From Escherichia coli phage phiS, in sequence record PP449093.1: DNA of 64,000 nt, one strand, 5' to 3'. The notes under the pieces are model-generated. The model did not search any database. It was given only the letters and a program-made list of their open reading frames with translations, and was not told the origin of the DNA. Shown here one piece after another: positions 1,029 to 24,542 of the stretch (the stretch's first letter is position 1; each line of letters starts with the position of its first letter). Made by a program: the position numbers and the translations under genes.

Positions 1029-3272
1029 ATGATTAAAAATGTTGTTAAGTCTTCCGGTCTGACTGTTCCGTTTGAAAAAGAAAAAGTAATGAAAATTCTT
1101 GAAGCGGCAGCCGAAGGTCATAACGTTGATCCATATGAATTGTTTGATATGGTTGAACCACTTCTGACAGAAGGTATGTCTACCAATGATATCCAGAAAG
1201 TATTGATTAAGGTCGCAGCAGATAACATTACTGTAGAAACACCAGATTATCAATATGTAGCAAGTAACCTTGCAATGTTCGCGCTTCGCAAATCAGTATA
1301 CGGTCAATTCCAACCGATTGATTTTTATAGCCATATTGAGCGTAATATTGCAACCGGAAAATATGATCGCGAAATTCTGCAAAAGTATTCCCGCGAAGAA
1401 GTGGAATATCTGGAGAAATTCATCGATCATAAACTTGATTTTAAAATGACCTACGCTGGTGCGATGCAGTTAAAAGAGAAATATCTTGTTCAGGATCGCA
1501 GCACTAAGAAAATCATTGAAACACCGCAGTTTGCGTATATGCTGATCGGTATGTGCTTACATCAAGAAGAGACAGAAAATCGACTTGAACATGTGATTGA
1601 TTTTTATAATGCTGTTGCGAATAAGCAAATTTCTCTGCCTACTCCGATTATGGCGGGTGTGCGTACCCCGACACGACAATTTAGTTCGTGTGTGGTTATT
1701 GAAAGTGATGACTCATTGCAGGGCATCAACGAAACAGCAAATGCAATCATCAAGTATATTAGTAAGCGTGCTGGTATCGGTATCAATGCTGGTATGATTC
1801 GCGCGGAAGGATCTAAGATCGGGCATGGTGAAGTTCGTCATACTGGCGTTATCCCATTCTGGAAACATTTTCAGACTGCCGTTAAGTCATGCTCACAAGG
1901 CGGTATTCGTGGCGGGGCGGCGACTCTCTATTACCCAATGTGGCATTTAGAGTTTGAAAGTCTTATTGTGTTGAAGAACAACAAAGGGGTAGAAGATAAC
2001 CGCATTCGTCATCTTGATTACGGCGTACAGATTAATAACCTGATGGTAGAGCGATTCCTTAAACGGGATTACATTACTCTGTTTAGTCCAGATGTTGCAG
2101 GTGGCTTGTTGTGGGATCTGTACTTCCGAGATGAGGAAGGTTTCCGCCAGCTTTACGAAAAACTGGAAAAAGATCCGAGTGTTCGTAAAACTCGTGTTAA
2201 AGCCGAAGACCTGTTTTTAGCGGTAGCAATTGAACGTTTTAACACTGGTCGAATCTACCCAACATTCACAGACAACATGAACAATCACGGGGCGTTTATT
2301 CGTAATGTAGCACCAATTAAACAATCTAACCTGTGTTGTGAAATTGCTCTGCCAACAAAACCGATGGGTCGTGATGATTCAGAAATTAGCCTATGTACTT
2401 TGGCAGCATATGTTTTAGGTAATTTCGATATCGAAAATATGGAAGAAGTAGAACGCATTGCTATGGTTATGGTGCGTGCACTTGACAACCTGTTAGATTA
2501 TCAGGATTATCCTGTAGAACAAGCTCTGACAGCCAAAAAACGTCGCTCTCTGGGTGTTGGTGTTACTAACTTTGCATCATATCTAGCAGATAATTTCTTC
2601 ACATATGAAGACGCTAACGAGTTTACGCATAAAACGTTTGAACGCTTGCAATATGCTCTGATTAAGGCTAGTGTGCGACTGGCTAAAGAGAAGGGTGCTT
2701 GCGAACTGATGCACGAAACACGTTATGGTCGCGGTGAACTGCCTATCGACTGGTACAAAAAGACAGTAGATGAACTGGTTGATCCGGTGTATGAGATGGA
2801 TTGGGAAGAACTGCGCGAAGACCTGAAAAAATATGGCATTCGTAACAGTACACTTTCGGCGCTGATGCCGTGTGAGTCGTCTTCTCAGGTATCTAACAGC
2901 ACAAACGGTATTGAACCGCCTCGCGGGATTGTATCGGTTAAAGGATCGAAAGAAGGGCAATTTAATCAGGTTATTCCGAACGTAGAGAATAATGCTGATG
3001 TTATTGACCTGCTTTGGACACTGATCAAGAAAGGTAACAAGCCTTATCTGACACTGGCAGCGATCATGCAGAAGTTTGTAGATCAGGCGATTAGTTCCAA
3101 TACATCCTATGATCCAAGCACTTATAAGACTGGTAAAGTCGATATTGCTGATGTGTTAGATGATATGTTGTTCGCTCAACATTACGGTCTGAAAACCCTG
3201 TATTATGCGAACGTTCGCGACGGTGCAGATGGTACGGAAGACGCTAGCGAGTGCTCATCTTGCAAGCTGTAA
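1029..3272 (+). CDS. nrdA: Ribonucleotide reductase class Ia large subunit
   Basis: 747 aa; N-terminal ATP-cone-like segment, C-terminal CESSSQVSNSTNGIEPPRG active-site region; RBS GAGGTAA before ATG; position td-nrdA-nrdB as in T4. Confidence 0.95.
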   Translation: MIKNVVKSSGLTVPFEKEKVMKILEAAAEGHNVDPYELFDMVEPLLTEGMSTNDIQKVLIKVAADNITVETPDYQYVASNLAMFALRKSVYGQFQPIDFYSHIERNIATGKYDREILQKYSREEVEYLEKFIDHKLDFKMTYAGAMQLKEKYLVQDRSTKKIIETPQFAYMLIGMCLHQEETENRLEHVIDFYNAVANKQISLPTPIMAGVRTPTRQFSSCVVIESDDSLQGINETANAIIKYISKRAGIGINAGMIRAEGSKIGHGEVRHTGVIPFWKHFQTAVKSCSQGGIRGGAATLYYPMWHLEFESLIVLKNNKGVEDNRIRHLDYGVQINNLMVERFLKRDYITLFSPDVAGGLLWDLYFRDEEGFRQLYEKLEKDPSVRKTRVKAEDLFLAVAIERFNTGRIYPTFTDNMNNHGAFIRNVAPIKQSNLCCEIALPTKPMGRDDSEISLCTLAAYVLGNFDIENMEEVERIAMVMVRALDNLLDYQDYPVEQALTAKKRRSLGVGVTNFASYLADNFFTYEDANEFTHKTFERLQYALIKASVRLAKEKGACELMHETRYGRGELPIDWYKKTVDELVDPVYEMDWEELREDLKKYGIRNSTLSALMPCESSSQVSNSTNGIEPPRGIVSVKGSKEGQFNQVIPNVENNADVIDLLWTLIKKGNKPYLTLAAIMQKFVDQAISSNTSYDPSTYKTGKVDIADVLDDMLFAQHYGLKTLYYANVRDGADGTEDASECSSCKL

Positions 3273-3280
3273 AATAAGTG

Positions 3281-3309
3281 TTGACGCGGGGAGAAATCCC
3301 CGCTATAAT
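3281..3309 (+). promoter_or_regulatory. sigma70-type early promoter with stem-loop in spacer (PeSL-like): TTGACG - 17 bp - TATAAT
   Basis: TTGACG 3281-3286, inverted repeat GCGGGGA gaaa TCCCCGC 3286-3303, TATAAT 3304-3309. Confidence 0.6.
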
Positions 3310-3341
3310 ACAACCATCAAAAACAAGTGAGGATTTTTATT

Positions 3342-3509
3342 ATGACCAAATTAAAATGTGTTGCTGTAGATTTTGAGCTAGCTGATAGCTTTGTTGTCGG
3401 TGATGTATATGATGCTCGACATGATGGGGCTTGCTACTACGTTGAGGATGAATATGGCGTAGAATGGGCTATTCTTCCTGATGATAAATGCTTTGAGGTT
3501 GTAGGATAA
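3342..3509 (+). CDS. Hypothetical small protein (55 aa)
   Basis: ATG preceded by GAGGA RBS; downstream of PeSL-like promoter. Confidence 0.35.
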   Translation: MTKLKCVAVDFELADSFVVGDVYDARHDGACYYVEDEYGVEWAILPDDKCFEVVG

Positions 3510-3682
3510 TGGCTACTGTATGGTTATTGATTGCAATCAGCAATTCAATGTATAATTACGGAAATATGTCAAGCATTGAGTTTGCAACAAAGCAGGATTG
3601 CGTTAAAGCTCGCGAGGTTATCCGCGAAGACAATAAACGCTTTATGAATCTGTACTGTGTTGAAAAGCAGAAGGTGAACTAA
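3509..3682 (+). CDS. Small membrane-anchored protein, tandem paralog 1 (57 aa)
   Basis: Not in the ORF track (<60 aa); MATVWLLIAISNSMY hydrophobic N-terminus; TAATG start-stop overlap; paralog of 3682..3849. Confidence 0.4.
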   Translation: MATVWLLIAISNSMYNYGNMSSIEFATKQDCVKAREVIREDNKRFMNLYCVEKQKVN

Positions 3683-6903: not shown

Positions 6904-7302
6904 ATGATTAAATTTCAAACTCGCAAAGACGTTCTGGACTTCGTTAAAGTTTTCGGTTACGCTGCATTGCAACATGCAATGGACAAAATGACCATCTCCC
7001 CAGATCAGACTATGCTGATCCGTATGGTTAAAGCAACCGCCTACAAAAACGACATTACCCTCTCAGAAATCAACGACGGTAATACTGTCCGCGAGGTAAT
7101 TGTTTCTTTCGAATCACCGAAAATTGGCGGTTTTCATACCACGATGTTAGGTGAAATCACTGTCACTGTATACGGGCAAGGTGGCGGAGTGTTTACCGTC
7201 AAAGAAGCAATGGAAAATGGAACGCTGAACAAAGAAAAACTGGAATTTGTCCTGAAAATCATCAAGGAGCGTAACGAAGCTCGCGATATTCTGGAAAGTT
7301 AA
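6904..7302 (+). CDS. Hypothetical protein (132 aa)
   Basis: ORF with GGAG RBS; followed by terminator-like hairpin. Confidence 0.5.
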   Translation: MIKFQTRKDVLDFVKVFGYAALQHAMDKMTISPDQTMLIRMVKATAYKNDITLSEINDGNTVREVIVSFESPKIGGFHTTMLGEITVTVYGQGGGVFTVKEAMENGTLNKEKLEFVLKIIKERNEARDILES

Positions 7303-7309
7303 TAAGGTG

Positions 7310-7334
7310 GGCGGGAGAAATCCCGCCTTTGTTG
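7310..7334 (+). terminator. Rho-independent terminator-like hairpin
   Basis: GGCGGGA gaaa TCCCGCC followed by TTTGTTGT. Confidence 0.45.
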
Positions 7335-7352
7335 TGACGTGAGGAAAGGATA

Positions 7353-7814
7353 ATGATTAATGAGCTAATAGAAAACTATGGATTCGTTAAATATTCATGT
7401 TTAGAGTGTAAAGATGGTGATGTGATTCTACCGCCTCAGAAGAACCGTTTAAATGTTCTTTACGCTATTGTTGTTGATGATGAACTGGTATACATTGGTC
7501 AGACTGTTAATCTCAGAAAGCGGATCAATTATTACCGGACTAGCATTAACAGACAAACACCAACAGCGGATACTCGCAAGAGTAAGAATATTCATAAGGC
7601 GCTAGAGGAAGGTAAGACAGTAACATTCTATTACCGACAGTGCTTTGAGTTGTACATCGAGAATCCAACGGGTAAGGATATTATAAGCACTGCCGATATC
7701 GAAGAACCTGTTTTGATCACCAAATTTAAACCAGAATGGAACACAAATTATGTCAACAAAAGAAAACAACAAAAAAGTTTTAGCATTGTTCAAAAATCTG
7801 ATGGTACTATGTGA
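7353..7814 (+). CDS. denA: Endonuclease II (GIY-YIG family)
   Basis: GIY-YIG core NVLYAIVVDDELVYIGQTVNLRKRINYYRTSINRQ closely resembles T4 EndoII as I recall it; position upstream of rnlA. Confidence 0.75.
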   Translation: MINELIENYGFVKYSCLECKDGDVILPPQKNRLNVLYAIVVDDELVYIGQTVNLRKRINYYRTSINRQTPTADTRKSKNIHKALEEGKTVTFYYRQCFELYIENPTGKDIISTADIEEPVLITKFKPEWNTNYVNKRKQQKSFSIVQKSDGTM

Positions 7815-8919
7815 CGGATCTGATACGTTCTATTACAAAGATGAAATTACGGCGATGCAAACCCGTATGCGCATTTTTAGCTATCTGTACTTGAGCAAAC
7901 CGGAAATGTGGAATAAACCAGATGCGTTAGAGTGTCGCGGGATCATGTTTGAAATTGACGATAAAGGTCGTCCGGTCCGCATCGCATCTCGTCCTATGGA
8001 GAAGTTTTTTAATTTGGGTGAGAATGATCGCGCTCGCTTTAAGCCGGAAGATGTGGAAATGGTCATGGACAAAATGGACGGTAGTCTAGTAAGTACATAC
8101 ATTGATAACGGCTATGTTCAGTTGAAGTCTAAAGCGGCCTTGTACTCAAGCCAGGCAGAGAGAGCAAACGGTCTTCTGTATTCAGAGAAGTATGCGGATC
8201 TACGCGCTAAGATTGCTGATATTGGGTCTGATTATACTTTCAACTTTGAATATACAGCGCCCAGCAACCGAATTGTTGTAGAATATTCTGAACCGTCGCT
8301 AACACTTCTGAATGTACGCCATAACGTCACAGGAGAGTATGTACCGCATCAAATGCTATTCGCTGATGCAATCCTACGTCCTCATCTGGTAAATGCGTTA
8401 CAGGTTGATTCAGCGCGTTTTAGCAATATTCTTGATGAAGTTCGGATCGCAGAAGGTATCGAAGGAATTGTTGCACGCACTAAAGACGGTCAAATGTTCA
8501 AAGTGAAGAGTGAATGGTATATTGGTGTGCATAACATTAAAAACACATCGATGTTTCCTAATAACCTGATCTACTATGTAGTAGAAAGTGAAACCGATGA
8601 TTTGCGTGCTGCATATGAAGGCGAACCGGAAGCACTGGAACGAATCGAGCTATTCGAGGAAGCATTCAGGTCTATTCTTCGCAATGCCTTCACGACAGCA
8701 ACAGAATTTTATAACGCACACGCGGGAGAAGACAGAAAGACATATGCATCCAATGCGACTATCGAATCACGTAAACATGGTGATGCACAAGCATATATTT
8801 TCATGTGTCTGATGATTGCATTTGATGGTCTTGATTATGACCGTATTCTGGATTCAATGAAAACTTACTATCTACGGAATTATAAGAAACTGATTCCGGC
8901 TGATAAGATTGATTGGTAA
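7750..8919 (+). CDS. rnlA: RNA ligase 1; start uncertain (overlaps denA 3' end)
   Basis: Nucleotidyltransferase KxDG motif in VMDKMDGSLVSTY; ALECRGIMFE and IASRPMEKFFNL blocks as in T4 Rnl1. Confidence 0.85.
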   Translation: MSTKENNKKVLALFKNLMVLCDGSDTFYYKDEITAMQTRMRIFSYLYLSKPEMWNKPDALECRGIMFEIDDKGRPVRIASRPMEKFFNLGENDRARFKPEDVEMVMDKMDGSLVSTYIDNGYVQLKSKAALYSSQAERANGLLYSEKYADLRAKIADIGSDYTFNFEYTAPSNRIVVEYSEPSLTLLNVRHNVTGEYVPHQMLFADAILRPHLVNALQVDSARFSNILDEVRIAEGIEGIVARTKDGQMFKVKSEWYIGVHNIKNTSMFPNNLIYYVVESETDDLRAAYEGEPEALERIELFEEAFRSILRNAFTTATEFYNAHAGEDRKTYASNATIESRKHGDAQAYIFMCLMIAFDGLDYDRILDSMKTYYLRNYKKLIPADKIDW

Positions 8920-18826: not shown

Positions 18827-18855
18827 TTGACAGGGGAGGATAACTCCCCTACAAT
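18827..18855 (+). promoter_or_regulatory. PeSL-like early promoter: TTGACA - 17 bp - TACAAT
   Basis: Inverted repeat GGGGAG gataa CTCCCC. Confidence 0.55.
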
Positions 18856-18895: not shown

Positions 18896-19147
18896 ATGGC
18901 TAACATCGAAACCGCAAAGAAAATCGCTAAAGACCTGAACGTTAAAGGCTTCCGTAAACTGAAATTACAGCGTGTACGCTACACCATCGGCAAACAGTGC
19001 TCTTTCATGAGCGAAGAAATTGCTAACAGCCTGATTGATAACCTGATTGCGGCTGGCTGGGAAGTTGCGGATCTGAAAACTTGCCGCGAACTGGCTAACA
19101 AAGGTCTTTTAGATTCTGTTACTATCAAACCAATGGGGGCAGCGTGA
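18896..19147 (+). CDS. Hypothetical protein (83 aa)
   Basis: GGAG RBS, PeSL upstream. Confidence 0.45.
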   Translation: MANIETAKKIAKDLNVKGFRKLKLQRVRYTIGKQCSFMSEEIANSLIDNLIAAGWEVADLKTCRELANKGLLDSVTIKPMGAA

Positions 19148-19680
19148 ACAATATAGACTGGAAGAAATACTTTAATTATGATCCTGATACTGGTATTCTT
19201 ACATGGAAGGAGAGAACAGATATACACCCATCAAGAATAAAACAATGGAATGCTGCATGGGCTGGAAAGGAGGTCGGGTCACTAGGAAGTGGTGGACGTT
19301 ATCTTGAATCGTCAATAAAAATTGACGGTAAAATTATTAACTACAAAGTTCATCGAGTATGTTATATTATCCACAATGGACCTATACCAGAAGGATATGA
19401 AGTAGACCATATTAATCACATTAAGACAGATAATAGAGCGGTGAATTTTGAACTTAAGACACATCAAGACAACATGAGGAATCAAACAAAATCTAAAAAG
19501 AATACAAGCGGACACAGTGGAATACATAAAAACAAATACAATAAATGGGTAGTTAGAATTGGCAGCGGTCGTCGTGGTGATAGAAAATATCTAGGATGCT
19601 TCGATACATTAGAAGAAGCTATAGAGGTTAGAACCAAAGCAGAAAGAGAGCATGGCTATCATGAAAACCACGGAAAGTAA
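19144..19680 (+). CDS. HNH endonuclease with C-terminal AP2-like DNA-binding domain; GTG start
   Basis: HNH core YEVDHINHIKTDNRAVNFELKTHQDNMRNQ; AP2-like GIHKNKYNKWVVRIGSGRRGDRKYLGCFDTLEEAIEVR. Confidence 0.7.
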   Translation: MNNIDWKKYFNYDPDTGILTWKERTDIHPSRIKQWNAAWAGKEVGSLGSGGRYLESSIKIDGKIINYKVHRVCYIIHNGPIPEGYEVDHINHIKTDNRAVNFELKTHQDNMRNQTKSKKNTSGHSGIHKNKYNKWVVRIGSGRRGDRKYLGCFDTLEEAIEVRTKAEREHGYHENHGK

Positions 19681-20386
19681 ACTTATATTCTGTAATTTTG
19701 ATGGGTCCGGTATCATGGGTCTAGAATGGGCGAAAGCAGGTCATAAGGTGATCTGCTTTAACGCAGATGATGCGGATCATGGAACATATAAAAAATACAA
19801 CACTCGATTTGAGCATCCCAACCTAACATATGTTAATGCATGGATTGACCTAGATTGGTTGGAAAGGGCAATGGACCTTGAATGGGGCAAACCGGATATG
19901 ATCTTTGCGTTTCCTAGCTGTTCAAATTTAGCGGTTAGTGGCGCTGCACATTTTGAGCGTAAGCGAAAAACTCTAGGTCCACTCATTCAGCATAGAGATG
20001 TTCAAACAGCTAAAATAACCGCTTATTTGGGTGAATGGCTAGGAGTTCCCTACATGATAGAGAATCCTGTAAGCGTTATCTCTAGCATGTGGCGTAAGCC
20101 TGATTATATGTTCCATCCGTGGGAATATGGCGGTTATTTGCCGGAAGATGATAAACATCCTACTTTTCCTGAGTATATTGCCGCCCGTGATATGTACCCG
20201 AAAAGGACTTGCTTATGGACCGGACAAGGCTTTATAATGCCAGAAAAGAAACCGTTGCAGATTAATAAAGGGTACAGTAAACAGCATTCTAAGCTAGGCG
20301 GGAAAGGAACGAAAACAAAGACTATAAGGTCACTTACCCCGCGAGGATTCGCAAAGGCAGTATTTGAAGCAAATAAGGATCTATAA
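19652..20386 (+). CDS. Compact cytosine-C5 methyltransferase-like protein (catalytic domain only)
   Basis: Motif I-like FCNFDGSGIMG, motif IV-like DMIFAFPSCSNLAVSG (PSC instead of canonical PCQ), motif VI-like MIENP; start overlaps 3' end of the HNH-AP2 gene. Confidence 0.55.
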   Translation: MAIMKTTESKLIFCNFDGSGIMGLEWAKAGHKVICFNADDADHGTYKKYNTRFEHPNLTYVNAWIDLDWLERAMDLEWGKPDMIFAFPSCSNLAVSGAAHFERKRKTLGPLIQHRDVQTAKITAYLGEWLGVPYMIENPVSVISSMWRKPDYMFHPWEYGGYLPEDDKHPTFPEYIAARDMYPKRTCLWTGQGFIMPEKKPLQINKGYSKQHSKLGGKGTKTKTIRSLTPRGFAKAVFEANKDL

Positions 20387-20715
20387 TGAGATTGTTTAAG
20401 TATTCGCTAACGTCAAATTACGATAAACAAGGTCATTGCATCCGTTGCCCTGATTGTCATAACCATAACATCGAAAGCAAGATCACCGATCATATTGATG
20501 GACTTTGGTCGCCAGCAAGTGAAATAGAATACTATTGCGCTGATTGTGGAATTGTAGTAGCATATTGGGCATACGGATCATATGATCCATACTTCCAGAT
20601 GGGAGAGCGTTCAATCCCTGCGCTTATCTGGAGAATTAAGAACAATATCCGCCATTCATGGGATGAGTTATTAAAAGATATTGATTTACGTGATGATCCA
20701 TTCAGGAGACTATAA
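20386..20715 (+). CDS. Zinc-ribbon protein (two CxxC pairs)
   Basis: CIRCPDC ... CADCG. Confidence 0.45.
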   Translation: MRLFKYSLTSNYDKQGHCIRCPDCHNHNIESKITDHIDGLWSPASEIEYYCADCGIVVAYWAYGSYDPYFQMGERSIPALIWRIKNNIRHSWDELLKDIDLRDDPFRRL

Positions 20716-20716
20716 C

Positions 20717-21235
20717 ATGAACAGATTAACCCCTAAACGCCGTTACTATACCAATACTAAAAACTTTGTCATCTCTGTTTATGAGGCGTGGTTAGAAGAT
20801 GGCTATATCAACATGAACCCAGATTATCAGCGTCCTTTGGTATGGGACACCGAAAACAAACGTATGTTTATCGAAAACCTGATTAATGATTTTCCGGTTG
20901 GTGCTATCGCAATGGCTAAGATTGATGATGGCTCTCGATATGAGATCGAAATCGTGGACGGTAAACAGCGTTTAAACGCAATATTCTCCTTCATGAAGGA
21001 TGAGTTTAGCATTGCTGGTAATGATGATTCTATGCTGTATTACAGTGATTTTACGCCAGCAGAAAAGCGACGTTTCCGAAATCTCGGACTACCCGCGATA
21101 ATGATGGAAGAGAGCACACGAGAAGACCGATTAGAGTATTTCTACAAAACAAACTTTTTCGGTGTCCCTCAATCGGAAGAACATCGCCAGCATGTGATTT
21201 CCCTATTGCAAGATGAGCAATTAAAAAATAACTAA
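20717..21235 (+). CDS. Standalone DUF262 (ParB/Srx-like NTPase domain) protein
   Basis: PDYQRPLVW ... IVDGKQRLNAI matches the DUF262 signature (DxQR ... DGQQR); AGGAGA RBS before ATG 20717. Confidence 0.55.
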   Translation: MNRLTPKRRYYTNTKNFVISVYEAWLEDGYINMNPDYQRPLVWDTENKRMFIENLINDFPVGAIAMAKIDDGSRYEIEIVDGKQRLNAIFSFMKDEFSIAGNDDSMLYYSDFTPAEKRRFRNLGLPAIMMEESTREDRLEYFYKTNFFGVPQSEEHRQHVISLLQDEQLKNN

Positions 21236-21242
21236 AAAGTTG

Positions 21243-21272
21243 TTGACAGGGGGATCGGTGATCCCCTATAAT
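21243..21272 (+). promoter_or_regulatory. PeSL-like early promoter: TTGACA - 18 bp - TATAAT
   Basis: Inverted repeat GGGGGATC ggt GATCCCC. Confidence 0.55.
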
Positions 21273-21308
21273 GCACACATACCGAAACGAACTACTAAGG
21301 AGTATCAA

Positions 21309-21521
21309 ATGGCTAACATCGAAATCATCATTACCGACGTAACTTATGACCGCATTAACGAAATCGGTACTGCATTACTGGAAGATGAAACAACTCGTAC
21401 CATCAACTACGCAGAATACGTTGAAATGCGTGGCTGGATTAAACGAGTAGGAAAATATACCCTGATTGAAAAAGACTATTCAGGATATACCTTAGAGCAA
21501 TTGCTCGATGGTGCATTATAA
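21309..21521 (+). CDS. Hypothetical protein (70 aa)
   Basis: ATG with GGAG RBS; followed by terminator hairpin. Confidence 0.45.
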   Translation: MANIEIIITDVTYDRINEIGTALLEDETTRTINYAEYVEMRGWIKRVGKYTLIEKDYSGYTLEQLLDGAL

Positions 21522-21526
21522 TAAAG

Positions 21527-21546
21527 GGGGCGTTAAGCCCCGTTTT
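21527..21546 (+). terminator. Terminator-like hairpin
   Basis: GGGGC gttaa GCCCC followed by GTTTT. Confidence 0.45.
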
Positions 21547-21587
21547 CATAAATATAGGTTTATAGGTTATCAACTAGAGGATATAAA

Positions 21588-23639
21588 ATGTTTAACTTAG
21601 AAATCGACGATCTAATGATTGAATCTTTCGAGAAATGGCTGTTGACGGAAGAGGAAGAAAACTTTGGTAGTATTGCCCCGGTACAGTGCTTAAAGCCTAA
21701 GCAGAATCCTAAACAGCTTTTTGCAGTACAGACACGCGATAAAGATGTGATTGTCCGTCTTTGTAACTTCACCAACAAAACACCTAAAATCATTCGTATG
21801 GGTGACAAGACAGCACATGTTGTACTGTGCGAAATGAACAAAAGCGGTCGTATTGTACAGCTTAAAAATGGTCTAGGCGATAACCCGATTGCAGTTATGG
21901 CAAGTGCTTTTGATGTGGTTATGGAAACAGCCCGTAAAGCGCAATTAGACGCTGTTATGTTCCGTTTTAACGTATCCCGCATGAAAGGTAAGACCGAACT
22001 GGTTAAGCGCGTTATAGAGCGTTTGGTGCGTCGTACACCGAAGTTTGAAGTATTCCAGCAGGAAGTAATGACCAGCAAAAAGATCGCTTTAGTTGTTGTC
22101 AAGCGTCGCGGTATGGCGATTGATAAGATTAAAGGGATTAAACTTGATGATTCCTTGTTCACTAAAGTAGAAAGTGATTTAGGTGATCGCTGGGTATCTA
22201 AGGCTACTGGTGAATCTCTGACTAAAGATGAGGCGTATGCGGCTAGTCTTGTGTCAGAAGAAGAACGAAACGCGGAAGCGGAACAACGCGTAGCGGCTAA
22301 ATCTCGTTTGACTAAAGAAGAAATGCTGAAAACTCAAGCGACCTATAACAGCGACTATGTGAATCATCCAGAAAAAATTAATCTTAAACCGGAAGAAGAT
22401 ATCACCGAAGCCGAACCTAAGAAACAGTTTAATACTCTGATTGATCGTCAAGCCTTAGAACGTTCAACCGCTCGTTCTCTGAATGAATGGACAAGTGATA
22501 TTATCACTCGCTATGGTTTCATGCGTACTATTTTTGAAAGCGAAGCCGATGCAAAATACGCAGTAAGCGAACTGGTAAAAGTTCAGGATCAATATGATCC
22601 GTTGTCTGCGGAAGTTATCGCAGCATCAATCAAACGCTTAAAAGAAATCATGAGCGAGGAAGTATTCGAAAACAAGATCACCGCCCTGGCAATGGATCGA
22701 GTAGACCAGTCTATGCCAGCAGATGTAAAAGCTGAAATGCTGCGTAGTCATATCACCCAGATTAAAACCGATGCCCTACGTAATGTTGCTTCCGGTATGT
22801 TTGAAGCAATTGCTAGCAACATGGGTGAAATGATGGCAGATATTGATCTTGATCTGCCGGGCGCGGAAGGTTTTGTATTGAGCGAATATGCCGATGCAGC
22901 ATACATCAATATGAACAACTTCCTAACCGACCGTAAGCTGGAAGAGTTTGAAGGCATCGCAGATCCAGAAGAATTGGTCAAGATGTGCGATGCACTGGAT
23001 AATGCCTTCTCTAACTATGGTGTTAAACTTGATCCGGGTACTATTCTGTATCGTGGTATGGACTTCCGGTCGCAAATGTGGGAAACTGCACGTAAGCAAA
23101 AAGCGTTTTACTTTAAAAACTATGTGAGCACTTCCCTTGCACCTAACATTTTTGGTGGCTGGAATGCAAACGTGGCTAGTGCCATTGCTGGTGTTGATTC
23201 TATGGCTGGCTCTCGCGGTGAAGGTGGCGCTAATGTTGCTTTCTCCATTGCTGGCGCGGAAAACATCCCTGTATTGCCAGTAGGTAACAAAGCATTTGCT
23301 TACAAAGAATGCGAGATTTTACTTCCTCGCGGTGTTGTGTTATCCTTTGATACGGTAACTCGTGCTACGGCATCGACGGATTCACAAGAAACATATTACA
23401 TTGAGGCACATATTATGAACAAAAGTGAACTGGCAGCATTACAAGAATCTGGCGAAATGATCGCGGACGGTGATGCATTCATCCGTGAAGGTGTTGTTAA
23501 ACCTGCTTCTGACCTGTCTTTCTCCAGCTTCATTAGCGAAGCTAAAACCGAACGTAAGAAAGCAGATAAGGCAACTCTACGTCAGCTTATCGCTGATCTG
23601 GTATCTGTAGACGCAATGCCAGATAAATTTAAAATGTAA
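21588..23639 (+). CDS. alt: ADP-ribosyltransferase Alt (head-packaged)
   Basis: 683 aa (T4 Alt is about 682); R-S-E catalytic triad motifs LYRG, VSTSLAP, ECEILLPRG; CATAAATA late-promoter-like box at 21547-21554. Confidence 0.85.
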   Translation: MFNLEIDDLMIESFEKWLLTEEEENFGSIAPVQCLKPKQNPKQLFAVQTRDKDVIVRLCNFTNKTPKIIRMGDKTAHVVLCEMNKSGRIVQLKNGLGDNPIAVMASAFDVVMETARKAQLDAVMFRFNVSRMKGKTELVKRVIERLVRRTPKFEVFQQEVMTSKKIALVVVKRRGMAIDKIKGIKLDDSLFTKVESDLGDRWVSKATGESLTKDEAYAASLVSEEERNAEAEQRVAAKSRLTKEEMLKTQATYNSDYVNHPEKINLKPEEDITEAEPKKQFNTLIDRQALERSTARSLNEWTSDIITRYGFMRTIFESEADAKYAVSELVKVQDQYDPLSAEVIAASIKRLKEIMSEEVFENKITALAMDRVDQSMPADVKAEMLRSHITQIKTDALRNVASGMFEAIASNMGEMMADIDLDLPGAEGFVLSEYADAAYINMNNFLTDRKLEEFEGIADPEELVKMCDALDNAFSNYGVKLDPGTILYRGMDFRSQMWETARKQKAFYFKNYVSTSLAPNIFGGWNANVASAIAGVDSMAGSRGEGGANVAFSIAGAENIPVLPVGNKAFAYKECEILLPRGVVLSFDTVTRATASTDSQETYYIEAHIMNKSELAALQESGEMIADGDAFIREGVVKPASDLSFSSFISEAKTERKKADKATLRQLIADLVSVDAMPDKFKM

Positions 23640-23717: not shown

Positions 23718-24542
23718 ATGTTCAAGAAATTACAGGATTTTCGTCTTTCGGAAGAAGCACGCGAATCAATGATGGAACGTATGGATAATTACATCGAAAC
23801 ATATGGCATCGAGGGGATTAATGGTTACATGATCACTGAGATGATCAGCGATCAGATTAACTTTGATGATTATGTGAAGGTTATCCGCTTCCTTGAGCGT
23901 GAGACACAAGATTATGGATTTGTCAAGAAAATCATTAATGTGATGTATGAAGTACACTCCGAAGACTTTGGAGATAATGTATTCAAACATTACAAACATA
24001 ACAATATAACCCCAGCAGAATATAATGCAATCTGTGATTATGTGTCTGAACAATACGAATGGGTAAATGGTGCTCTCTTAGGGGAAGAAGACATGACCGA
24101 TGAGATATCAGAGATTGTTGATTTGATGGATTGTGTCATGGATAAAACCGAAAAGTTAAACGGTACTCTTTATCGCGGTCAACATCTTGACATTCAGACA
24201 ATAGAGCGTATTATTGAAGATAAGGAATTTACCTTTAAAAACTTTGTGTCGACCAGCATGACACCAATCATCTTTGGAGGCTGGCTTTCAAACAGCACTA
24301 GCCTTTATTGTGAGAATCGATATGAATCAATGACCGGAAAGATGCAACATTCTTGTAATGTATCGTGGGTAATTGACGTAAAAGATCATAAAGGTTTTGT
24401 CGTTGGGTCAATTGCATGGAACCCTTGCGAATGTGAAGTAATTTTACCGCGCGGGACTTGCGTCAAGGTAAACGACGTAGTAGAATCTTTCGGCGATGAG
24501 AATCGTAGACAATTTACAATTTTCGGTGAGGTGACTAAATGA
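23718..24542 (+). CDS. Second ADP-ribosyltransferase (Alt/Mod-like, 274 aa)
   Basis: LYRGQHL, FVSTSMTPIIFGGW, ECEVILPRG parallel the Alt catalytic motifs. Confidence 0.7.
   Translation: MFKKLQDFRLSEEARESMMERMDNYIETYGIEGINGYMITEMISDQINFDDYVKVIRFLERETQDYGFVKKIINVMYEVHSEDFGDNVFKHYKHNNITPAEYNAICDYVSEQYEWVNGALLGEEDMTDEISEIVDLMDCVMDKTEKLNGTLYRGQHLDIQTIERIIEDKEFTFKNFVSTSMTPIIFGGWLSNSTSLYCENRYESMTGKMQHSCNVSWVIDVKDHKGFVVGSIAWNPCECEVILPRGTCVKVNDVVESFGDENRRQFTIFGEVTK

Follow-up and report, generated by a model that had tools for sequence, protein, structure and literature searches.

A stand-alone minimal DUF262 gene lies in the accessory-gene region upstream of alt in phage phiS, within the 64,000-nucleotide stretch of DNA analysed here (the window), together with the following features.

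18827 to 18855, plus strand: sigma-70-type promoter-like site, TTGACA-17-TACAAT (11/12 in a consensus scan)
19144 to 19680: HNH_3 homing-type ORF (Pfam match)
19652 to 20386, plus strand: MTase-like gene, 244 aa, phrog_757; its stop overlaps the start of the next gene
20386 to 20715, plus strand: CxxC/zinc-ribbon-like gene, 109 aa, phrog_2993; its stop abuts the start of the DUF262 gene
20704 to 20708, plus strand: Shine-Dalgarno sequence AGGAG, 8 nt 5′ of the DUF262 ATG (read from the sequence)
20717 to 21235, plus strand: stand-alone minimal DUF262 (ParB/Srx-fold) gene, 172 aa, with its ATG at 20717 and its TAA at 21233-21235
21243 to 21272, plus strand: perfect sigma-70 consensus promoter, TTGACA-18-TATAAT (12/12), just 3′ of the DUF262 stop

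The ATG at 20717 is the start used in all annotated orthologues, giving genes of 519 nt, and the ORF translates to 172 residues rather than the 173 given in the first-pass annotation of this DNA. The same annotation had placed the gene in a phage, and indeed the region shares 96% identity with genomes of Krischvirus, among them JSE, RB49, Phi1 and TB34, the source being an RB49-like (Krischvirus) phage of E. coli. The DUF262 protein was found at an identity of at least 95% in 56 records, compared with 63 records matching the 4-kb region. Across six orthologues the pN/pS ratio of the gene was 0.03-0.09, indicating that the ORF is a real gene under purifying selection.

A profile search, the test named in advance for the earlier DUF262 assignment, placed the protein in PF03235 (GmrSD_N, that is, DUF262) with E=3.9e-20 and 73.3 bits over residues 26-122. 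Since the curated Pfam gathering cut-off for this family is 33.2 bits, the match is far above chance. The ParB/Srx-like fold proposed at the same time was borne out by an AF2 model with this fold (pLDDT 87.7, pTM 0.83), high confidence being reached in only one of the five models of the first run. No NCBIfam family was found for the protein. Three motifs, following the definitions in PMC12065111, were located in it, and their conservation was scored on 153 representatives with a pairwise identity of at most 50%.

20825 to 20845, plus strand: motif I (QRxxxW), Y37-Q-R-P-L-V-W43, with Q38 to W43 as the motif itself
20957 to 20971, plus strand: motif II (DGxQR), D81-G-K-Q-R85, predicted nucleotide-phosphate binding centre
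21140 to 21184, plus strand: motif III, F142-x3-N146 (F142-Y-K-T-N146), and the clade-specific G149-V-P-Q-S-E-E-H156, placed by alignment

The two motif strings read earlier, DYQRPLVW and DGKQRLN, correspond to residues 36-43 and 81-87. In motif I, Q38 and R39 were 100% conserved, W43 99% and Y37 95%. Every residue of D81-R85 was 97-100% conserved (K83 97%), and motif II aligns with the DGQQR of BrxU, of the DndI-system protein and of other solved DUF262 proteins. The motif III region was similarly constrained (F142 99%, N146 100%, G149 99%, H156 97%, S153 86% and Q152 83%); a weak alignment puts it on the 'FIRMNSGG' of BrxU, and two relatives, P0026 and P0023, reach positions 176-182 of the Pfam profile. 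Nearly all of the near-invariant positions lie within the three motifs, with G149, H156 and F92 in addition, as is usual for sites that bind a ligand or carry out catalysis.

The phage clade, recognised by DGKQR together with a near-invariant G(V/I)PQSxEH, comprises 324 cultured phage records and thousands of metagenomic proteins. Its members are found mostly in phages, with hosts that include Proteobacteria, Bacteroidota and Firmicutes, and they occur in RB16/RB43-, KP15- and ST64B-like phages as well as in metagenomic phages. Cellular DGKQR relatives have F..LN..G..L..QELRN in place of the G(V/I)PQSxEH segment, and the restriction of this segment to the phage clade suggests that the site has been modified and not just copied passively. 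On the other hand, the lysine that replaces the first Q of DGQQR is not a sign of new chemistry, because cellular NsnA-like proteins have it too. Some relatives add an N-terminal Tudor/KOW-like barrel, as might be expected of a targeting domain on an active module. The homologue in temperate phage ST64B, sb33, is flanked by a cI-like repressor gene and int, a position that, from general knowledge of lambdoid phages, we take to be an early accessory region; an ST64B-type homologue was found in one of 5426 E. coli genomes, where it is truncated and plasmid-borne. The T4-like phages among the matches listed belong to genera without hmC and include no T-even type, and the Escherichia-named matches listed are about as many as would be expected from Krischvirus and Pseudotevenvirus alone. 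A literature search by DUF262, ParB-like, locus tags and phrog id found no work on the function of stand-alone DUF262 proteins from phages. The clade is large, mostly phage and uncharacterised, and it is a variant within the known DUF262 domain family.

We also examined the genes around the DUF262 gene. The MTase-like gene matched phrog_757, 'DNA methyltransferase', at E=1.5e-88; it had no Pfam match, and a PDB sequence search gave a chance match only. The zinc-ribbon-like gene gave weak matches to Zn_Ribbon_TF and ECs_2282_CxxC. The promoter-like site at 18827 is likely to be the start of an early unit ending with the DUF262 gene, while the promoter at 21243 appears to start the next early unit, which would make the DUF262 gene the last of its own; no plus-strand terminator-like site was found between the 18827 promoter and 21243. 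Early expression of the DUF262 gene is suggested by such consensus promoter matches alone, the total of which in the region was not above the shuffled expectation. The MTase-like and DUF262 genes share this transcription unit and are not general partners. The zinc-ribbon-like gene is probably co-transcribed with the DUF262 gene, in an association that is lineage-specific; apart from Krischvirus, the two adjoin only in L008, a relative with 56% identity, and the ORFs of 109 aa found upstream in RB16 and Miro show no relation to the phiS zinc-ribbon-like ORF. The HNH_3 ORF at 19144, the only HNH gene nearby, is a sporadic homing-type insertion that is missing in most relatives.

The description of the protein as standalone was confirmed, since it has one Pfam domain only and its immediate neighbours carry no DUF1524 or GmrD-like nuclease. 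A Pfam scan of seven flanking ORFs revealed no DUF1524, ATPase or dioxygenase, no DGxQR, QRxxxW or DHIYP-like motif was found in the other ORFs of at least 80 aa in the window, and the MTase-like and zinc-ribbon-like genes had no NsnB or NsnC match in PADLOC. Flanking genes were compared by tblastn between the window and four metagenomic loci, RB16, Miro and ST64B were examined next, and plus-strand ORFs were then clustered across 60 loci. No neighbour family was common to the phage lineages in these 60 loci besides the DUF262 gene itself, and a conserved partner gene was therefore rejected.

The reading that we prefer, tentatively and with slightly less than even confidence, is that the protein is a self-contained NTP-binding or NTP-hydrolysing module, expressed early and acting in trans on a host or phage target. 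It would correspond to the DUF262 part of the NsnA architecture, with the ParBDB domain, the nuclease or effector and the dedicated partner gene all removed. By homology with BrxU, SspE, ParB and Srx, we infer that an NTP would be bound, in a pocket built by QRxxxW, DGKQR and FxxxN, and that it might then be hydrolysed or serve as a switch or phosphodonor. The clade-specific G-V-P-Q-S-x-E-H segment may aid this use of NTP, and within it H156 is a candidate for a further residue that takes part in catalysis or contacts the ligand. The presumed action in trans would not be directly on DNA, and the protein would serve an accessory purpose early in infection, in host take-over or counter-defence. 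Sensing of modified DNA, which the first-pass annotation had considered, is unlikely for the protein alone. In SspE, GmrSD, NsnA and DndB it is the helical ParBDB or middle domain that binds DNA (PMC12065111), and the phiS protein has none. Direct DNA binding is unlikely, because the protein is acidic (pI 5.05, net charge about -6, calculated as -6.3) and only about 26 residues remain C-terminal to motif III.

An alternative explanation is that the free DUF262 core is a counter-defence decoy, which would enter non-productive heterodimers with host immune DUF262 sensors, or compete for their partners, and uncouple sensing from the effector. Its targets could include NsnA (Menshen), PD-T4-2_A, Dazbog DzbA, GmrS/GmrSD/BrxU and SspE, and the proposal thereby broadens the earlier idea of a dominant-negative mimic past GmrS. 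NTP-dependent dimerisation, as in the engagement of ParB N-domains, also requires conserved nucleotide-pocket residues, and motif conservation alone therefore cannot separate an enzyme from a decoy. In the PADLOC defence library, the best match was NsnA (E=1.1e-20), residues 13-150 aligning to exactly the DUF262 part of that profile (positions 47-188 of 385), followed by PD-T4-2_A (E 4.8e-12, residues 27-102), while GmrSD/BrxU-like models reached 1e-4 to 1e-2 only. Among cellular proteins, the nearest relatives are sensors of the NsnA (Menshen) and PD-T4-2_A types, ahead of GmrSD. Both alignments suit a decoy, as does the naming of PD-T4-2, reportedly by Vassallo and colleagues in 2022, for its anti-T4 defence. 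Cellular DGKQR proteins of 350-385 aa, one of which is encoded in a defence island, align with the NsnA profile along its full length (50-381). Furthermore, the BrxU dimer changes state upon NTP binding, the early accessory position of the gene suits anti-defence genes, and a type IV system that requires a separate GmrS-like subunit exists (PMC12373910), which implies that free DUF262 subunits can join complexes.

Nevertheless, we regard a decoy as rather unlikely. Host DUF262 domains are hugely divergent, with 'virtually no similarity' past DGQQR among the GmrSD proteins compared; in the phage clade, by contrast, conservation extends over phages of Proteobacteria, Bacteroidota and Firmicutes alike, and the near-invariant H156, S153 and Q152 of the clade are not seen in the cellular proteins that it would have to mimic. 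The narrower version put forward earlier, a dominant-negative mimic of GmrS, is disfavoured by these same residues and also by the biology of the carriers, since Krischvirus genomes have no hmC or glucosylation genes, no T-even phage occurs among the matches listed, and the DNA of TB34, in which no modified base was detected, is not cut by BrxU (PMC13390438).

By analogy with certain phage ParB-like proteins, the DUF262 protein might be an accessory factor of a DNA-modifying enzyme, which would activate or guide the MTase-like phrog_757 enzyme encoded two genes upstream and might form part of the unexplained cytosine-modification phenotype of Krischvirus. The MTase-like, zinc-ribbon-like and DUF262 genes overlap or abut at their stop and start codons, phage ParB/Srx proteins without a DNA-binding domain are obligate activators of 5mYOX thymine dioxygenases (bioRxiv 10.1101/2025.08.14.668559), and modified cytosines have been reported in the Krischvirus SAP, which has no known pathway genes (PMC13390438). 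However, this reading appears improbable on several grounds. Phage records with the MTase-like family number 1536, as against 324 with the DUF262 family; the MTase carriers listed are mostly small-genome phages, which are missing among the DUF262 matches listed. RB16/RB43-, KP15- and ST64B-like phages and metagenomic phages have the DUF262 gene without an MTase-like neighbour, and L008 keeps the zinc-ribbon-like and DUF262 genes and has no MTase-like gene. From the record counts and from L008, a link to the MTase-like gene was rejected as a general rule. Moreover, the 5mYOX-associated ParB proteins belong to PF02195 and not to DUF262. SAP and TB34 differ in their modification, yet their MTase-like/zinc-ribbon/DUF262 operons are identical, and all that sets the two apart locally is that the promoter segment 3′ of the DUF262 gene shows a perfect 79-bp tandem duplication in one relative to the other. 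We do not regard this duplication as explanatory, and a link between the operon and the difference in modification was rejected. The modification profile of SAP groups with those of seven Tequatrovirus phages of the same collection (PMC13390438), which would counsel caution about its cytosine phenotype.

We give equally little credence to a phage-borne exclusion or defence sensor, directed against competing phages or plasmids and served by a variable, lineage-specific effector nearby. It is true that cellular DUF262 is almost always a defence sensor, that the orthologue is labelled 'DefenseFinder protein' in some phage records, that the gene is present in temperate phages too, and that a single phage contig encodes both a long-form mini-DUF262 and a DUF262+HNH protein of 454 aa. 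Against this, no effector-like neighbour recurred in the 60 loci, the Krischvirus neighbours, which comprise small ORFs besides the MTase-like and zinc-ribbon-like genes, have no toxin or nuclease domain save the sporadic HNH homing-type gene, the ParBDB DNA-binding domain of the cellular sensors is missing, and the gene is placed in an early unit of strictly lytic phages. This placement in an early unit also led us to reject an injected internal protein like IPI*, for which the N-terminus offered no support either, as by eye it has no clear capsid-targeting and cleavage signal of the T4 type.

DUF262 is among the most reused sensor domains of bacterial immunity, being found in GmrSD, BrxU, SspE, Dnd-associated systems, Menshen, Dazbog and PD-T4-2, and the phage clade is a conserved copy of its nucleotide-binding core alone, carried by hundreds of cultured phages that include candidate therapeutic Krischvirus and Klebsiella T4-like phages. 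It is possible, if doubtful, that the clade represents a widespread and previously unrecognised counter-defence or host-take-over factor. As a poison subunit, the protein could disable, in an NTP-dependent manner, the DUF262 sensor common to Menshen, PD-T4-2, Dazbog, GmrSD/BrxU and Ssp/Dnd. As an enzyme, it could be a neofunctionalised ParB/Srx protein with a new His-containing active site that acts on a nucleotide or a host protein. The clade would thus be either a simple model for the basic chemistry of DUF262 or a candidate broad inhibitor of DUF262-based defences; if it proved to be a housekeeping-type accessory enzyme, the result would be a useful annotation of phrog_1583 and no conceptual advance.

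Compared with known systems, the phiS protein resembles NsnA, the proposed sensor of Menshen (NsnABC), most closely. It matches the whole compact ParB-DUF262 part of NsnA, including motif III, with the same three motifs and the same compact spacing between motifs II and III, and it shares the DGKQR variant of the cellular 350-385-aa proteins. It differs in that both the N-terminal sensor domain and the C-terminal ParBDB domain (an eight-helix DNA-binding domain) are missing, the alignment stopping at position 188 of 385; in having GVPQSxEH where NsnA-like proteins have G..L..QELRN after motif III; and in being encoded by a phage, whereas NsnA comes from defence islands. Nor does the phiS gene have NsnB (an ABC ATPase) or NsnC (an effector) next to it. 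PD-T4-2_A, from an anti-T4 system of E. coli, is matched across motifs I and II within a 363-position profile that contains further domains, and PADLOC detected no PD-T4-2 B-like neighbour at the phiS locus. GmrS/GmrSD, BrxU and SspE are DUF262-DUF1524 type IV restriction and PT-sensing nucleases. The earlier statement that DUF262 is normally fused to HNH/DUF1524 holds for this branch only, and the best defence-library match of the phiS protein is NsnA. The phiS protein has neither the middle helical domain nor the DUF1524/HNH nuclease of these enzymes, no GmrD-like gene or motif was found within the 64-kb window, and DGKQR stands in place of the DGQQR typical of GmrSD. The inter-motif insertions of GmrSD are also missing, so that the Pfam alignment covers only positions 5-105 of 199.

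The similarity to the canonical ParB CTPase is confined to the fold of the N-domain. Sequence identity to the ParB N-domain, PadC and the sulfiredoxin/free serine kinase group was 8-18%, and no PF02195 (ParBc) match was found in the phiS protein at E up to 1. The ParB boxes GxxRxxA and ENLQR are replaced by the DUF262-specific motifs, and the HTH and dimerisation domain of ParB are missing. The ParB-like regulators associated with 5mYOX are, like the phiS protein, encoded by phages and of the ParB/Srx fold; their DNA-binding domain has been lost, and they serve as accessory factors that work in trans and depend on nucleotide (bioRxiv 10.1101/2025.08.14.668559). In contrast to the phiS protein, which falls in the DUF262 branch and has no dioxygenase among its neighbours, they match PF02195, keep a C-terminal dimerisation domain and lie beside a TET/JBP-like dioxygenase gene. 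By analogy, they provide a functional precedent for a bare ParB-type module in phages.

The window derives from a Krischvirus, an RB49/JSE/Phi1-like T4-type coliphage, and bases 19000-23000 are about 96% identical to dozens of RB49/JSE/Phi1-like genomes. The DUF262 gene (20717..21235, + strand) has an AGGAG eight nucleotides 5′ of its ATG, ends in a TAA at 21233-21235, and encodes 172 residues rather than the 173 reported in the first-pass annotation. The two peptides singled out there, DYQRPLVW and DGKQRLN, were found at residues 36-43 and 81-87, and a profile search placed the protein in Pfam PF03235 (GmrSD_N, that is, DUF262), scoring 73.3 bits (E=3.9e-20) where the curated cut-off is 33.2 bits, confirming the observation of a stand-alone DUF262 protein. 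PHROGs assigns it to phrog_1583 (function unknown; E=3.9e-53), NCBIfam has no model for it, and public records already annotate it in part, as a 'DUF262 domain protein' in phage W115 and through a note on RB16p168. With pN/pS values of 0.03-0.09 across six Krischvirus orthologues, and at least 95% identity of the protein in 56 phage records compared with 63 records matching the surrounding 4 kb, this is a genuine gene, under constraint and nearly core to Krischvirus.

DUF262 proteins are defined by the motifs QRxxxW (I), DGxQR (II, the predicted nucleotide-binding centre) and FxxxN (III), as described in the analysis of Menshen (PMC12065111), and the phage protein contains all three, at Q38-W43, D81-R85 (in the form DGKQR) and F142-N146. 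Fold comparison gave scores of 9.4 for the pNOB8 ParB N-domain, 8.7 for BrxU (134 residues aligned), 7.8 for PadC, 7.7 for SspE (130 residues aligned), 6.3 for both KorB and sulfiredoxin, 5.9 for the DUF262 protein of the Dnd-DndI system and 5.1 for free serine kinase. Lacking the usual DUF262 insertions, the protein aligns with no more than positions 5-105 of the 199-position Pfam profile and is a stripped-down form of the domain. In NsnA, DndB, GmrSD and SspE, DUF262 is followed by an eight-helix ParBDB/middle domain that confers DNA binding (PMC12065111). The phage protein, in which about 26 residues follow motif III, has neither this domain nor a nuclease domain, and it is acidic (pI 5.05, charge -6.3).

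A word-indexed search recovered only seven relatives, while scanning all 1.84 billion representatives with an HMM gave 17,175 matches at E<1e-3, 71 of them at E<1e-30. The best 150 of the 17,175 are all short: some stand alone at 160-190 aa, and the others reach about 270-295 aa through an N-terminal extension. Some relatives carry an attached Tudor/KOW-like barrel. In an alignment of 153 representatives with pairwise identity of at most 50%, the near-invariant residues were Y37, Q38, R39 and W43 in motif I, D81, G82, K83, Q84 and R85 in motif II, F142 and N146 in motif III, as well as F92 and G149, and a clade-specific tail was found at P151 (80%), Q152 (83%), S153 (86%) and H156 (97%). This suggests that the near-invariant His, Ser and Gln adjoining motif III may form a modified active or ligand site.

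The family is present in 324 cultured-phage records, including Krischvirus, the other T4-like genera whose hosts are Klebsiella, Enterobacter, Cronobacter or Citrobacter, together with RB16/RB43 (Pseudotevenvirus, Slopekvirus and relatives), ST64B-like temperate Salmonella phages (gene sb33, flanked by a cI-like repressor gene and int), Kappa/K139-like Vibrio phages, Moraxella phages, and large phages of Brevundimonas, Sinorhizobium, Tenacibaculum and Bacteroides. Since no T-even-type phage was among the 60 matches listed, and Escherichia-named matches are about as many as expected from Krischvirus and Pseudotevenvirus alone, Tequatrovirus and Mosigvirus probably lack the family. The short form also occurs in genomes of Klebsiella grimontii, Serratia, Buttiauxella and Flagellimonas, where it might stem from prophages, though this is conjecture; among 5,426 complete E. 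coli genomes the family is all but missing. The sole E. coli genome match to the ST64B-type homologue was a truncated 115-aa 'DUF262 domain-containing protein' (L152 3989..4336) among small hypothetical genes of the 210-kb plasmid pDETEC13 (NZ_CP116116.1). Separately, the phage-like contig L069 encodes a 454-aa DUF262+HNH protein of GmrSD-like architecture (2295..3659) and, about 3.3 kb away, a minimal DUF262 protein of the long form (7001..7891).

In the window, the DUF262 gene is the last gene of a tightly packed series, listed here with the promoters on either side:

18827, near-consensus sigma-70 promoter
18896..19147, 83-aa ORF
19144..19680, + strand, HNH_3 ORF
19652..20386, + strand, MTase-like ORF (phrog_757)
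20386..20715, CxxC/Zn-ribbon-like ORF (phrog_2993)
20717..21235, + strand, DUF262 gene
21243..21272, + strand, perfect sigma-70 promoter (TTGACA-18-TATAAT), just 3′ of the DUF262 stop codon

No terminator-like site was found on the + strand between the promoters at 18827 and 21243. Downstream come two small ORFs, followed by alt and another ADP-ribosyltransferase gene. This layout, together with the consensus promoter matches, suggests that the DUF262 gene belongs to an early accessory transcription unit. The spacer of the 21243 promoter holds a palindrome, GGGGATC-GGT-GATCCCC, with two GATC sites, and the consecutive + strand ADP-ribosyltransferase genes (Alt homologue, 683 aa, 21588..23639; second protein, 274 aa, 23718..24542) both match PF03496. 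The homing-endonuclease-like HNH_3 gene (PF13392, E 3e-17) lies on a 530-bp insertion (19149..19678), a site that is empty in JSE (4-bp junction) and holds an unrelated 81-aa ORF in TB34 and W115; compared with relatives, the left flank is 99% identical and the right flank, in the MTase-like gene, about 89-90%, a pattern suggestive of a mobile endonuclease and of co-conversion or mosaic exchange.

Clustering the same-strand ORFs of 60 loci revealed no family other than the DUF262 protein that is shared across lineages. Outside Krischvirus, the Zn-ribbon gene accompanies it in a single metagenomic relative (56% identical), which is without the MTase-like gene, and the neighbours in RB16, Miro and ST64B are unrelated.

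Our tentative reading, which we favour with somewhat less than even confidence, takes the protein for a self-contained ParB/Srx module that would bind or hydrolyse NTP, be synthesised early in infection and exert its effect in trans, on a component of the host or the phage and not on DNA. This reading draws on the concentration of conservation across very distant phages in the pocket motifs, the clade-specific residues adjoining motif III, the lack of a DNA-binding domain, the acidic charge, the absence of a partner gene and the Tudor/KOW-like targeting barrel of some relatives. Family membership, fold, conservation, autonomy and distribution are shown directly, whereas nucleotide use, early synthesis and the effect in trans are inferred. 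The main rival, that the protein is a decoy poisoning DUF262-based immune sensors, is rather unlikely. The closest relatives of the protein are indeed NsnA-type and PD-T4-2-type proteins, free GmrS-like subunits participate in some type IV systems, and pocket conservation is compatible with a decoy, as NTP-dependent dimerisation would require the same residues; however, host DUF262 domains diverge very fast while the phage clade is conserved, and the invariant residues of the clade are missing from the proteins to be mimicked. The finding would carry more weight if the clade turned out to inhibit DUF262-based immunity in general or to be an enzyme that has neofunctionalised.

That the protein assists the neighbouring MTase-like enzyme as an accessory factor is improbable in view of a lack of co-occurrence: the MTase-like family is found in 1536 phage records compared with 324 for the DUF262 family, and most of its listed carriers are small-genome phages that are not among the DUF262 matches. 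The MTase-like protein itself (244 aa; 'DNA methyltransferase' phrog_757, E 1.5e-88) shows by eye the C5-MTase-like motifs FDGSG, FPSCS and ENP, matches nothing in Pfam, in NCBIfam or, by sequence, in the PDB, and leaves no room for a normal target-recognition domain; TB34 carries the gene, yet has no detectable modified base (PMC13390438). A phage-borne exclusion sensor, which the resemblance to defence sensors might suggest, is weakened by the absence of any effector and seems hardly probable.

The literature yielded no work on the function of a stand-alone DUF262 protein encoded by a phage. The first-pass annotation had proposed a sensor of modified DNA or nucleotides, or a dominant-negative GmrS-type mimic, and this was only partly supported; the GmrS-specific mimic is disfavoured by the lack in Krischvirus of the hmC DNA that GmrSD attacks. 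Krischvirus genomes carry no hmC-synthase or glucosyltransferase genes, and TB34 DNA is unmodified and BrxU-resistant (PMC13390438, 2026). SAP, which is 99.96% identical to TB34, was reported to have DNA that contains hmC and gentiobiosyl-hmC and that BrxU cuts, without a genetic explanation (PMC13390438). In this 7-kb region the sole substantial difference between them is a perfect 79-bp tandem duplication in SAP (L013 3440..3597) of the promoter segment directly after the DUF262 gene. The SAP phenotype should probably be treated with caution, since its modification profile groups with seven Tequatrovirus phages of the same collection (PMC13390438).

A precedent for bare ParB/Srx modules acting in trans is provided by phage ParB-like proteins (PF02195) that lack a DNA-binding domain and serve phage thymine dioxygenases as obligate activators (10.1101/2025.08.14.668559, 2025 preprint). 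These belong to a different superfamily branch, however, and their dioxygenase gene is always adjacent, whereas none lies beside the DUF262 gene.

Among defence proteins, the top PADLOC match was NsnA, the proposed sensor of Menshen, with E=1.1e-20 and residues 13-150 aligned to positions 47-188 of the 385-position profile; this part is the entire compact DUF262 domain with motif III and ends where ParBDB begins. PD-T4-2_A was second (E 4.8e-12), whereas GmrSD/BrxU-like models gave only weak scores (1e-4 to 1e-2). DGKQR is not restricted to phages, as cellular DGKQR proteins of 350-385 aa match the full-length NsnA profile (E 1e-36 to 1e-47). Two such proteins occur in an uncultured Clostridium sp. 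MAG (L102 2347..10202) and Klebsiella oxytoca (L117 3886..5963), with no obvious NsnB/NsnC pair after either; one sits in a defence island, between a type IIG RM enzyme and genes for PDC-S11 and PifA-like proteins, the other overlaps an upstream 349-aa ORF without a PADLOC match, and they may be NsnA-like sensors in non-canonical systems. After motif III, the cellular proteins read F..LN..G..L..QELRN and the phage clade GVPQSxEH. Given the NsnA match over the DUF262 domain, the DGKQR shared with cellular relatives and the different tail, the most fitting description of the phage protein is an NsnA-type ParB-DUF262 core whose DNA-binding domain has been lost and which has gained a conserved tail of its own; what is new is thus a mostly phage-borne minimal core with its own motif signature and no previously described function.
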